From: a virus
Direction: 5' to 3' (one strand)
DNA: 64,000 bases
Virus record (IMG/VR): IMGVR_UViG_3300031227_000018
Coordinates: 45,219-109,218 of that record
Shown: positions 24,814 through 33,030 of the stretch, piece by piece
How the letters are laid out: each line of letters opens with the position of its first letter
Numbering within the stretch: the stretch's first letter is position 1
Made by a program: the position numbers and the translations under genes
The notes under the pieces: model-generated
Seen by the model: only the letters and a program-made list of their open reading frames with translations
Told to the model about the DNA's origin: nothing
Database searches by the model: none

Positions 24814-25056
24814 GTGGCTCAAATTGATCAAAAAGAACTTGTTGCATTAATTATTGAAGAAATGGATTGTAAGAAAGTGTTTCAAGCAAAATGGGTTTTT
24901 GATTGTGCGTTATGTGGAGATCATGTTGACGAAGGCACTGATTTTGTATTTATAGGTGATAAGCAGAAGATTTGTGTGTCTTGTCAAGCGTATATATCTG
25001 AATTTTTTAGTGATGCGTTGCAGAGAGAAGAAGAAAAAGACGGATGTTTAAAATAG
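24814..25056 (+). CDS. Small zinc-binding hypothetical protein
   Basis: CALC..CVSC; SD GGAGG. Confidence 0.6.
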   Translation: MAQIDQKELVALIIEEMDCKKVFQAKWVFDCALCGDHVDEGTDFVFIGDKQKICVSCQAYISEFFSDALQREEEKDGCLK

Positions 25057-25088
25057 TTTTTTATTTTTGTTTATAAAAAGCGTAAAAG
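25050..25088 (+). promoter_or_regulatory. Conserved phage promoter P4 (TTTATT-N17-TAAAAG)
   Basis: Motif copy at the head of the PCNA/modification operon. Confidence 0.75.
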
Positions 25089-25124
25089 AAAGCAGTAGAA
25101 ATGAACTGTATTTAGGAGAAACAA

Positions 25125-25334
25125 ATGGTTAAAGAGTGTAAGCATGACATATTGATAGCGATTTCTCAGGAGGATGAAAAGTTTTTGTGTTTTGATAAAA
25201 CAAGGAGGTACAAGTGTCAGTTGTGCAGTAAGGAGATTTTGATTTTACAATATGAAGTGCGTGAATATAATGAAAGAAAATTGGAAGATGATGATAGGCA
25301 GTTAAATCTTTTTGAAAAGGAGGAAGTGAAATGA
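25125..25334 (+). CDS. Small zinc-ribbon protein with QLNLF beta-clamp-binding-like motif
   Basis: CKH..CQLC; DDRQLNLFE near the C-terminus; SD AGGAG. Confidence 0.55.
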   Translation: MVKECKHDILIAISQEDEKFLCFDKTRRYKCQLCSKEILILQYEVREYNERKLEDDDRQLNLFEKEEVK

Positions 25335-26032
25335 AAGTAAAATCGTTGATATTTAAAGATTATTTAAGGCAGTCATGTATGGCAGGATCAGCAGCAGTTG
25401 GAGAATGTTTTCTTGATTTTAAGGATGAGGGTGTTGAGTTGTTGACAGTTACTGCAGCGAATAATGTTATGGTTAATTCATTTTTGTTAAAGAAAAATTT
25501 TGAAGAATACGAAGTGTTTGGTAAAATTGGGATAGACAATCTATCCAACTTGATGAAGTTGCTTGAACGTATTGAGAGCGAACATATTGCTGTTGAGAAA
25601 AAAGATAACAATTTGTTGTGTTTTAAGGGTGGTAATAAAAAGATTGAATTTCTATTGAAAGATCCTGAATATATTGAAGCACCTCCAACAGTTCCAAATG
25701 ATTTATCTCATGATATTTCAATAAAATTAAATCCTGACCAAATTCGGGAATTCCTTAACGATGTTTCGGCATTGAGTGCAGATGAGATTTTGTTTACCAC
25801 AGAATCTGGGAAACTATTGTTGGTGGCTTTAGGTCAACATAAAATACGCAACAAGATTGATGTTGATATTGACGGTGAACTCAATGCAAAGTTCACTTCC
25901 CTTTTAGTTGATGCTATTGGCAATCTTACGGGTAACATTAAGGTTGATTTAAAAAATGATTATCCGGTTTTATTTAGCACAGATTTGAATGCTAATGGAT
26001 TTATTAAAATTTTAGTAGCTCCAAAAGCGTAA
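25331..26032 (+). CDS. PCNA-type sliding clamp
   Basis: 233 aa; F.DEGVEL..V.AANNVMV, FEEYE..KIGIDNL..LMKLL.R, DYPV..ILVAPK C-terminus. Confidence 0.85.
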   Translation: MKVKSLIFKDYLRQSCMAGSAAVGECFLDFKDEGVELLTVTAANNVMVNSFLLKKNFEEYEVFGKIGIDNLSNLMKLLERIESEHIAVEKKDNNLLCFKGGNKKIEFLLKDPEYIEAPPTVPNDLSHDISIKLNPDQIREFLNDVSALSADEILFTTESGKLLLVALGQHKIRNKIDVDIDGELNAKFTSLLVDAIGNLTGNIKVDLKNDYPVLFSTDLNANGFIKILVAPKA

Positions 26033-26033
26033 A

Positions 26034-26218
26034 ATGAGAAAAGGTCAAAAAGTATCAGAAGAGATTCGGAAATGGAATGGGACGAAGGTGTCCATTATAA
26101 TTACGATGGCTCATTGAGAGAACGAGACATCAATAGGCAGGGAGAAATAAAAAGATATTACTCTAATTTTAGATTTTTAAGAATAAATGAAATAACTGAA
26201 ATGATAATACAAGTGTGA
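26034..26218 (+). pseudogene. Internally deleted homing-endonuclease relic (NUMOD3-like start + Vsr/DUF559-like end)
   Basis: MRKGQKVSEEIRK in one frame; EWDE..HY..L.ERD..RQ.EI..FRFLRINE in another. Confidence 0.55.
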
Positions 26219-26225
26219 GGTTTTT

Positions 26226-31214: not shown

Positions 31215-31228
31215 AAGGAAGGGGTAAA

Positions 31229-31606
31229 ATGATTAACACTTATGATCTTGATGGGGTTGTTTATTTAGGAGATGATTATGATGGTATTTATCCAGGTAGA
31301 GAAGACATCATTATAACGGGGAGAAGTATTGAGGAAGCGAAGTCTACGCATGAAATGTTGAGGTTGAGGTGCATTTATAGTCATGTGTTTTTTAACCCAA
31401 TTCCATTCAGTGCAAAAACTAGAGAATCTTCTGGTTATCATAAAGTTAATGTGATTAAAATGTTGATTGAAAGCGGTTATGAACATGGCCTTCATTTTGA
31501 TGATGATGAAATTCAGATCAAAATAATCAAAGAGCTCCTTCCCAATGTTCGTGTTGTGCATGTAGTTTCTGATATTGTTGAGAAGGAAAATGTTAGACAT
31601 GATTGA
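31229..31606 (+). CDS. Small HAD-superfamily phosphatase
   Basis: YDLDGV, IITGRS, K, HFDDD motifs. Confidence 0.8.
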   Translation: MINTYDLDGVVYLGDDYDGIYPGREDIIITGRSIEEAKSTHEMLRLRCIYSHVFFNPIPFSAKTRESSGYHKVNVIKMLIESGYEHGLHFDDDEIQIKIIKELLPNVRVVHVVSDIVEKENVRHD

Positions 31607-32099
31607 GGGCAAAATGTTAGAAATAGAAAAGAGAATAGTTATTGAACCTGAAAGTGTTGTTTGGAATCAGAAGGTAAAGGAGTGGTGCGGTCTTCCGTAT
31701 TATGATAAAAAAAATGGATGTCCAAATTTCAATAAACGTAAGGGATGTCCGATGGATAATAAGAATATAGATGAAATTTTAGATGTCAATAAAAAAACTT
31801 ATATTGTGGGTGTTGTTTTTAATTTAAAAGAATATCGCGATGAAATGAAGAAAAAACATTCAAATTGGACATATCGACAATTAAACAATGTGATATATTG
31901 GCAAGGATCAATTTTTGGAAAAATGAAAAGGGAAGTCAATAAGTTTTCATTGATGAATCCTGGTTTAAAAATTGTTTATAAGCCAGAAGCATATGGAGTT
32001 AATTTAACAAAGATGTTATTGAATTCGGGTGTTCCGATAAACTGGAAGTACCCGTTGAGAAAGATTTATATTGTGGCGTTATTAGGAGGAAAAATATGA
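31599..32099 (+). CDS. DUF2284-like metal-binding protein
   Basis: WC..GCPNFN...CP and PEAYGVNL.KM motifs. Confidence 0.65.
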   Translation: MIEGKMLEIEKRIVIEPESVVWNQKVKEWCGLPYYDKKNGCPNFNKRKGCPMDNKNIDEILDVNKKTYIVGVVFNLKEYRDEMKKKHSNWTYRQLNNVIYWQGSIFGKMKREVNKFSLMNPGLKIVYKPEAYGVNLTKMLLNSGVPINWKYPLRKIYIVALLGGKI

Positions 32100-32614
32100 A
32101 AGAATTTATTGCAGTTATTGGTCAAAGTGCATGTGGTAAAACAACATTTGTTCAAAATGAATTTATTGGGGCAAATGAGATGGTGTTAAATAAAGATCCA
32201 CTTTTACATACTGTTGTTAATGATTGTTGTTTATTGGGGGATTATGTTACGTCTGTGAGGACAAAAGGTACTGACAGGTTTTCTTATTCTATTTTACCAG
32301 ATTTGATTGAGTTTATAAAAAATAAAAAAGATGAATACAATCGTTTTGTCGCAGAAGGTGATAGAATAAATTGTGAAAGATTCTTCCAGTCTTTAAAAGA
32401 TTTGAAATTGAATGTTACGGTTTATGTTTTTTTATGTGATGTTAATTTGAGCGTTCAGCGTAGAGTTGATTCTGGTTCAAAACCTTCAGAGCAATTTGTA
32501 AGGGCAACTCAAACTAAAACTTTAAGAATGAAAAAAATGGTAGAATCTTTAGGGTTTAAAGTTATTGTTGAAGATTCTAGAACAGAAAACAATATCAAAC
32601 ATGGATGGTGGTGA
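32096..32614 (+). CDS. P-loop nucleotide/DNA kinase of the type linked to base-modification clusters
   Basis: GQSACGKTT, LGDY..KGTDRFS, EGDRI, RR..GS motifs. Confidence 0.75.
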   Translation: MKEFIAVIGQSACGKTTFVQNEFIGANEMVLNKDPLLHTVVNDCCLLGDYVTSVRTKGTDRFSYSILPDLIEFIKNKKDEYNRFVAEGDRINCERFFQSLKDLKLNVTVYVFLCDVNLSVQRRVDSGSKPSEQFVRATQTKTLRMKKMVESLGFKVIVEDSRTENNIKHGWW

Positions 32615-32617
32615 CTT

Positions 32618-32998
32618 ATGCGTGAAGAACTTGAAGCAAAAATGTTTTGTCAATTATTATATAAAGAGGGGTATGTTGAAGGTACGTCTGGTAATTTAAG
32701 TTTTAGAGATAGAAGTAGAGTTAAAATAACTCGTACAGGTTGTACATTGGATGATCCATTTTTTGTTGATACAGAAAGTTTTGAGGCTTCATCTGATGTT
32801 AATTTACATAAAGAAATTTATCGATTGACGGATAGTGATTGGATTTTTCATGTTCATAAAGACCTTAAATTAAAATTTCTTTTGACAGATAAAGATTTGG
32901 ATCTTCATTGGTTTAATGTAAGAGATCATGGGGTTTGGGTTGGATGTGGAGTTGATATAAAAATTTATAGAATTCTTGAAGATGAGGGAATTTTATAA
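32618..32998 (+). CDS. Minimal class II aldolase/adducin-family protein
   Basis: GTSGNLSFR, ITRTG, ASSD..LH..IY, FHVH, HGV. Confidence 0.8.
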   Translation: MREELEAKMFCQLLYKEGYVEGTSGNLSFRDRSRVKITRTGCTLDDPFFVDTESFEASSDVNLHKEIYRLTDSDWIFHVHKDLKLKFLLTDKDLDLHWFNVRDHGVWVGCGVDIKIYRILEDEGIL

Positions 32999-33030
32999 GG
33001 GTAGGTGATGATATGAAATTTAAAAAGTAG

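Follow-up and report, generated by a model that had tools for sequence, protein, structure and literature searches.

The stretch analysed here is the right-hand 64 kb of IMG/VR virus record IMGVR_UViG_3300031227_000018 (positions 45,219 to 109,218; 64,000 nucleotides, hereafter the window, whose coordinates are used unless stated otherwise), a complete phage genome that is 109,218 bp long and has a direct terminal repeat of 127 bp. This stretch contains a group of genes in which a PCNA-fold sliding clamp and its loader precede a set of thymidine-hypermodification enzymes. Twelve open reading frames (ORFs), all on the + strand and all with checked gene calls, lie within 25125-32998; from 26226 on they overlap or abut, and the sole sizeable gap is the 194 nt between the clamp and loader genes, which holds neither a promoter motif nor a convincing terminator. 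Exact copies of the promoter-like motif ATAGTTTTTTATTTTT are found on the + strand at 25053-25068, upstream of the clamp unit, and at 33032-33047, at the head of a helicase-primase-DnaE unit, with no match between them; a sequence-only reading of this DNA had taken these two sites (its P4 and P5) to bracket one tightly coupled operon and had placed the DnaE replicase under a separate promoter, and both descriptions are borne out. The motif, a phage-specific, promoter-like element, occurs nine times in the window, where 0.8 matches are expected; seven copies are intergenic, every one of these in the replication half of the genome, and copies also head the chaperonin and DnaN units. The best explanation is that 25125-32998 forms a single transcription unit of the early or replication class, and the clamp appears to share its temporal class with DnaE and DnaN, whose units carry the same ATAGTTTTTTATTTTT motif. 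At least seven units (window 21606-60376) are headed by ATAGTTTTTTATTTTT followed 10-15 nt later by a AAAGTAAAAGG-like element; these units are confined to the right-hand 45 kb of the genome and are absent from the structural half.

The clamp gene (25331-26032, + strand) encodes a protein of 233 amino acids with an acidic isoelectric point of 5.0, typical of clamps. It has no Pfam match and is recognised by phrog_223; phmmer retrieved 349 relatives of ~230-240 amino acids, and a 60-sequence profile matches archaeal PCNAs over its full length (residues 20-232) with an E value of 1e-20. The AlphaFold2 (AF2) model has a mean predicted local distance difference test score (pLDDT) of 96 and Foldseek template-modelling (TM) scores of 0.82-0.88 to PCNAs, and in the atlas the protein falls among viral clusters between gp45 and PCNA. 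Profile and predicted fold thus assign the product to the PCNA/gp45 sliding-clamp superfamily. Its closest relative (P0002) is 56% identical; no matches were obtained when the clamp and the family member P0020 were compared with GenBank phages by tblastn, megablast of 25000-45000 against GenBank phages gave zero matches, and single-protein IMG/VR scans with the PCNA, DnaE, P0007, P0022 and P0019 retrieved nothing. The PCNA alignments offered no block of sufficient conservation for such a scan.

The adjoining gene (26226-27149, + strand) encodes a clamp-loader ATPase of 307 amino acids of the RFC-small/gp44 type. It matches phrog_168 at 7e-64, RFC-small structures in the PDB at 2e-37 and T4 gp44 at 7e-28, with bacterial gamma reached merely at 5e-7, and its translation contains Walker A GTGKTS, a Walker B LDEAD and the KSRC arginine finger; by sequence it is far nearer RFC/gp44 than bacterial gamma/tau. 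The same clamp-loader pairing occurs in two other lineages, L061 and L062. The end of the loader gene is overlapped by an ORF (27142-27579, + strand; ~138-145 amino acids) that stands in the gp62 position and is homologous to the loader-adjacent ORFs beside PCNA-RFC in L061 and L062 (E 1e-14 and 2e-18). The sequence-only reading had called this product gp62-like; its similarity to Cr30 gp62 and to the gp62-position ORFs of L002/L013 is not significant, so that it is not detectably a gp62 homolog. Its homologs in L061 and L062 mark it as a conserved partner of the loader, and a loader-subunit role is likely.

Downstream of an ORF of 112 amino acids without a significant family match (27566-27904, + strand) lie the genes of the hypermodification cassette, all on the + strand. 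A radical SAM enzyme with a CxxxCxxC motif (27864-29306; PF04055) resembles the M6 gp53 isomerase by BLASTP at E 5e-8 and is followed by an FkbM-type methyltransferase (29307-30044; PF05050 at 3e-13), a homolog of which holds the equivalent position in 23 related loci. The next gene (30045-31214) encodes an amino-acid:DNA transferase (ADDT; PF18724 at 2e-15, scoring 57.9 bits where the cut-off is 26.2) with 79 homologs at 34-71% identity. It is followed by a HAD-type phosphatase-like protein with a DLDGV motif (31205-31606; phrog_415), which is 52% identical to Cr30 gp118 and is found in 37 related loci, a DUF2284-like metal-binding protein (31575-32099; PF10050 at 5e-6), a P-loop kinase (32096-32614) and a short class II aldolase-like protein (32618-32998; PF00596 at 4e-8). 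The kinase (172 amino acids) is a candidate 5-hydroxymethyl-2'-deoxyuridine (5-hmdU) DNA kinase: it has a Walker A motif, its best Foldseek matches are polynucleotide kinases (TM 0.6), its relatives belong to PF18751 though the protein itself has no Pfam match, and it is homologous to Cr30 gp114 and has the label phrog_800 in common with M6 gp54. Families and folds thus uphold the gene content that had been read from the sequence, namely PCNA, RFC, radical SAM, FkbM, transferase, HAD, DUF2284, kinase and aldolase. Both PHROGs (phrog_800) and the RefSeq entries for Cr30 gp114 and M6 gp54 name this kinase family "terminase small subunit", probably a propagated misannotation. In related loci a TET/JBP oxygenase gene occupies the slot held here by the radical SAM gene; we considered the radical SAM enzyme as an oxygen-free stand-in for TET/JBP, an idea weakened by its homology to the M6 gp53 isomerase.

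An unusual end is shared by the two enzymes whose work has to be done on the DNA itself. The ADDT terminates in ...KIYNSNWW and the kinase in ...NNIKHGWW, and no other of the 149 ORFs has -WW at its end (composition-aware resampling, P 0.0013). The kinase model is confident overall (pLDDT 92) and drops to 58 and then 36 over residues 161-172, its sole low-confidence part, so the tail is predicted to be flexible or disordered; a relative 61% identical to the kinase (P0233) keeps ...VHGWW despite a differing linker.

A possible meaning of these tails comes from relatives of the cassette. We compared 48 IMG/VR loci carrying ADDT homologs, each with flanks of up to 10 kb. Their core cassette comprises a TET/JBP oxygenase, an FkbM or glycosyltransferase, ADDT, a MIPS-like protein, HAD and kinase, and its usual place is behind the gp41-type helicase in T4-like replication clusters. 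Across these loci the family-B DNA polymerase (PolB) and the cassette enzymes have in common a tail like a PCNA-interacting peptide (PIP): ...ASLEDFF in PolB, ...SSLADFF in TET/JBP proteins, ...TLEDFF in glycosyltransferases and ...SLEDFF or ...GLEVYF in ADDTs. In L029 four proteins carry it at once (PolB ...ASLEDFFG, oxygenase ...ASLEDFF, glycosyltransferase ...TLEDFF and ADDT ...SLEDFF). PIP-like tails are present in 17 of 35 unique ADDTs and in 52 of 695 other ORFs, a 12-fold enrichment (Fisher p 7e-10). The peptide varies across lineages and co-varies inside each: in the ViI-type phage PhiSH19, PolB ends ...VNLLSMMGKKG, the kinase ...VSLLGLLSKG and ADDT ...VNLMTLLKR, and in Cr30 PolB ends ...ADLSSLFD and gp122, encoded beside ADDT, ...SDLSKLF. 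As a positive control, T4 gp43 and gp55 have SLDFL[FY] in common, which is missing from the alpha- and beta-glucosyltransferases (alpha-GT and beta-GT); as a negative control, M6, a PolA phage, has no shared tails, and the examined part of its genome contains no annotated clamp gene. In each of the five large relatives a single gp45-type clamp is encoded and DnaN is absent. By the precedent of T4 and RB69, the modification enzymes of clamp-encoding relatives would be clamp clients. Full-text literature searches turned up no paper in which DNA-modifying enzymes of phages bear clamp tails of the polymerase type; closest in print are a disputed contact between T4 alpha-GT and gp45 (bioRxiv 10.64898/2025.12.06.692756) and the ParB-dependent T-dioxygenases (PMC13229309).

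The phage differs from these relatives in its replication proteins. A DnaB-family helicase, a DnaG-type primase and DnaE are encoded by the unit at 33076-38673 (+ strand), in which DnaE (35497-38673, + strand; family match) is the sole polymerase found; homologs of gp32, UvsX and SbcCD are encoded downstream of it. Neither PF00136 (PolB) nor PF00476 (PolA) is matched anywhere in the complete 109,218-bp genome, so the claim that the window lacks a family-B polymerase extends to the whole record. The DnaN beta clamp that had also been reported is indeed encoded and full-length (55520-56671, + strand; PF02768 5e-9, phrog_947 9e-21, beta clamps in the PDB over residues 5-381), behind a ATAGTTTTTTATTTTT copy at 54221 and 22 kb from the clamp unit. 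By regular expression, DnaE has no beta-clamp motif in the C-terminal region where Escherichia coli alpha has its own; its single match, QKQVL, is at residue 487. The fecal contig MT835501, among the closest GenBank matches to DnaE (~30% identity), was set aside, as it lacks PCNA/RFC and looks bacterial.

Other proteins carry tails of a type familiar from T4. A sigma-like protein of 202 amino acids, encoded outside the window (8391-8999 in genome coordinates, locus L059) and only weakly matched by phrog_351 (E 2e-4), ends in ...PISLMFDFVKN, which closely resembles the tail through which T4 gp55 binds its clamp (...SPSLDFLYEAND), and is on this resemblance a candidate for clamp-activated late transcription. 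The DnaG-type primase (34511-35488, + strand) ends in ...SIFDFGDQLNIEDK, which contains ...SIFDFGDQ..., and a protein of 274 amino acids with an N-terminal hydrophobic segment (39566-40390) ends in ...RGFDFGLSLSLTF, with FDF near its end. The F-D-F of the latter two is the motif of PolB and a neighbouring protein in L062. F[DE]F in the last 15 residues occurs in these three ORFs against 0.53 expected (P 0.016), and such tails point to a clamp that acts, as in T4, both in late transcription and at the fork.

L061 and L062 are informative about the origin of the clamp module. In both, the PCNA-RFC-accessory module adjoins PolB and is not accompanied by this modification cassette, and these gene neighbourhoods show that the clamp family to which the phage's PCNA belongs natively serves PolB. 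The accessory-subunit homolog of L061 ends in ...GLDKWF and a methylase there in ...SALEKWGL; in L062 the accessory-subunit homolog ends in ...DIWSF, PolB in ...NIFEF and a 259-amino-acid protein in ...TVFDF. These ends suggest that the family accepts aromatic, partly tryptophan-containing tails. Within L061:10001-17267 an N6/N4 DNA methylase gene stands between RFC and the accessory subunit and is followed by a C5 cytosine methylase gene; the N6/N4 methylase and the accessory subunit have ...L[ED]KW[GF] tails in common, and the PolB gene adjacent to the clamp module is split by a GIY-YIG endonuclease gene.

We propose, at about even odds, that the phage has retained a T4-type clamp toolbelt after the loss of PolB and that this toolbelt also carries modification enzymes. 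The clamp module would be the remnant of an ancestor that replicated with PolB, DnaE having since taken the place of that polymerase. The kinase would convert 5-hmdU to a phosphorylated intermediate and the transferase would perform the amino-acid transfer; both would have to act on DNA, and both would dock through their flexible -WW tails onto a sliding clamp loaded on new DNA, most probably the window PCNA, which would place decoration closely behind replication. The clamp would be a shared toolbelt with other users besides: T4-gp55-like ...[LI]xFDF tails are found on the primase and the sigma-like late factor, and DnaE itself may use the clamp. That the transferase and the kinase are tethered to some sliding clamp, summing all readings in which the tails dock on one, we consider fairly probable from the sequences, and the PCNA is a more probable partner of the -WW tails than DnaN. 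The sequence-only reading had proposed the PCNA as a platform for modification enzymes; that such enzymes ride a clamp gains comparative support from the shared flexible -WW tails and from the polymerase-type tails of relatives. The further claim that the platform is dedicated to modification is not sustained.

Several observations weigh against the toolbelt proposal. ADDT homologs as close as 69-71% identity lack the WW end, the -WW end misfits the canonical h-x-x-aromatic-aromatic spacing of PIP motifs, and the radical SAM and FkbM proteins have no such tail. DnaE ends in ...NGLKFIEV and its OB domain reaches residue 1054 of 1058, leaving no free tail, and because DnaE is tail-less the rule by which the enzyme tail equals the polymerase tail is inapplicable here. 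The adjacency of clamp and cassette could be an inherited T4-like gene order, since genes 42 and beta-gt of T4 lie near 43-62-44-45. In addition, neither PF00303 (thymidylate-synthase family) nor PF12851 (TET/JBP) is matched in the complete genome at E 0.1, and because no route to 5-hmdU was found in the genome, the chemistry is incompletely explained.

That the PCNA serves modification alone is unlikely. In its full form this reading has DnaE replicating on a DnaN that the host loader loads, with PCNA and RFC acting solely as an enzyme platform; the absence of PolB, the tail-less DnaE, the full-length DnaN, the confinement of WW tails to cassette enzymes and the location of clamp, loader and cassette in one unit would all fit it, but the same module serves PolB phages that lack this cassette, and the sigma-like and DnaG tails resemble those of T4 gp55 and L062 PolB at a frequency above expectation, so that we regard it as improbable. 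A related division of labour, in which DnaE runs on the beta clamp and the RFC-loaded PCNA, freed from a polymerase, becomes a platform for hypermodification and perhaps for the late sigma-like factor, is rather unlikely. Nor does the evidence favour the earlier idea that clamp and cassette were acquired as one. Clamp or loader genes lie beside the cassette in about 6 of the 48 loci (L002/3, L004, L012, L013 and L041) and in Cr30, whereas about 42 have no clamp gene within the flanks; the synteny of PCNA, RFC and transferase therefore recurs, as that reading had asked, but most loci do without it. The linkage is recurrent, not obligatory, and is compatible with shared residence in replication clusters. 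The module also stands beside PolB in L061 and L062. The clamp and cassette region shows no compositional anomaly, its GC content and skew matching those of its flanks, and a recent acquisition of the cassette is not supported.

More weight, though still well short of an even chance, goes to an ordinary replicative or transcriptional clamp that is merely adjacent to the cassette: PCNA and RFC would work with DnaE, the primase and/or the late sigma-like factor, and -WW would dock elsewhere, on DnaN, on gp32 or on each other. T4-like phages keep nucleotide-modification genes inside the replication cluster, the T4 order mixing genes 42/beta-gt with 43-62-44-45 is an example, and the cassettes of most relatives follow the helicase with no clamp gene in flanks of up to 10 kb. 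The replacement of PIP-like tails by -WW could reflect either co-evolution with a divergent PCNA or a switch to a newly acquired DnaN; its occurrence in the single lineage that acquired DnaE and DnaN would fit a switch to a new replicative clamp. Some ADDT homologs have beta-motif-like ...QGLLxx ends. Against mere adjacency, the enzymes of relatives would use gp45/PCNA-type clamps in phages that have no DnaN, the L061/L062 loader subunit, a known PCNA partner, bears a tryptophan-containing tail, and -WW resembles, to our knowledge, no known beta-clamp motif. It is more improbable still that the -WW ends are not docking tails at all, being membrane or cofactor contacts or chance, with the enzymes acting free as in M6. 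The M6 enzymes do work in vitro without a clamp (PMC8989533), that phage lacks shared tails, and binding of T4 alpha-GT to gp45 was not reproduced (bioRxiv 10.64898/2025.12.06.692756); yet the two -WW ends fall inside one cassette at the low probability given above, the tail is conserved in P0233 and predicted to be disordered in the kinase, and tail-sharing is systematic among clamp-encoding relatives.

Among known systems, the T4 clamp gp45 with its loader gp44/gp62 and clients gp43, gp55 and gp33 is the nearest to the toolbelt proposed here. Sequence and model indicate a similar two-domain, trimer-type clamp, an RFC-like SRC loader and a small accessory subunit; T4 clients are recognised through extreme C-terminal hydrophobic or aromatic peptides, as is proposed here, and in both phages the clamp module lies in a replication cluster with gp32, UvsX and gp46/47 homologs. 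Unlike T4, the phage has DnaE and DnaN in place of a family-B polymerase, its candidate client tails are -WW, its clamp is nearer archaeal PCNA than gp45 in profile and fold, and its accessory subunit is not detectably gp62. In comparison with T4-type toolbelts with modification clients it is unusual in having lost PolB, in combining two types of clamp and in its -WW tail. The phages with polymerase-type tails on modification enzymes (the 48 ADDT loci, PhiSH19 and Cr30) are alike in having enzymes with one common terminal peptide; here the polymerase has no such tail, clamps of two types occur together and the peptide is -WW. Coupling of a modification enzyme to a clamp, so that modification follows replication, is known from the eukaryotic DNMT1-PCNA pair, whose enzymes are unrelated to those of the phage. 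The ParB-dependent phage T-dioxygenases (PMC13229309) are likewise DNA-modifying enzymes that a ring or clamp protein keeps on DNA, with modification spreading along it, but the enzymes are unrelated and ParB is a CTP-gated clamp, not PCNA.

The chemistry is closest to the thymidine-hypermodification pathways of ViI, M6 and PaMx11, which act post-replication on 5-hmdU (PMC5889632; PMC8989533). The ADDT/aGPT-Pplase-type transferase, the candidate P-loop DNA kinase and the M6-gp53-like radical SAM enzyme are alike, whereas in the phage the dUMP hydroxymethylase and the TET/JBP oxygenase are unmatched, FkbM, HAD, DUF2284 and aldolase-like proteins are added, and the cassette is co-transcribed with a clamp and its loader. 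Clamps go unmentioned in PMC8989533. The T4 study that failed to reproduce binding of alpha-GT to gp45 used C-terminal His tags (bioRxiv 10.64898/2025.12.06.692756), and C-terminal tags on enzymes of the kind described here would mask the tail, a point qualified by the fact that T4 alpha-GT itself has no gp43-like tail.

If the modification enzymes ride the clamp, protective decoration of the DNA would be physically timed to replication, and this would explain how large thymine fractions are converted before host nucleases meet bare DNA. With a PolB-phage clamp module, no PolB, and DnaE and DnaN beside it, the phage is a natural separation-of-function case and therefore offers a direct test of the role of a PCNA-type clamp beyond, or not only in, polymerase processivity.

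A few further observations concern the clamp unit and its surroundings. The first gene of the unit (25125-25334, + strand; from the ORF list and its translation) encodes a cysteine-rich protein of 69 amino acids without a family match that contains QLNLF 10 residues from its end. We take this to be an exact fit to the bacterial beta-clamp-binding consensus QL[SD]LF, and the protein could, from this motif, bind or inhibit the beta clamp or serve as an adaptor joining both clamp systems. Nine ADDT homologs (among P0183-P0211) have C termini of the form ...QGLLxx or ...L[GS]L[HQ]x, resembling beta-clamp motifs (QLxLxL), and the phages that encode them may tether ADDT to a beta clamp. Directly upstream of the clamp operon, behind a ATAGTTTTTTATTTTT copy, lies a gene for a GroEL/Cpn60-type chaperonin (23036-24811; PF00118, 4e-54). 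Across window 22000-64000 the coding strand shows a very strong, even GC skew, with (G-C)/(G+C) at 0.33-0.47, and a GC content of 31-38%.

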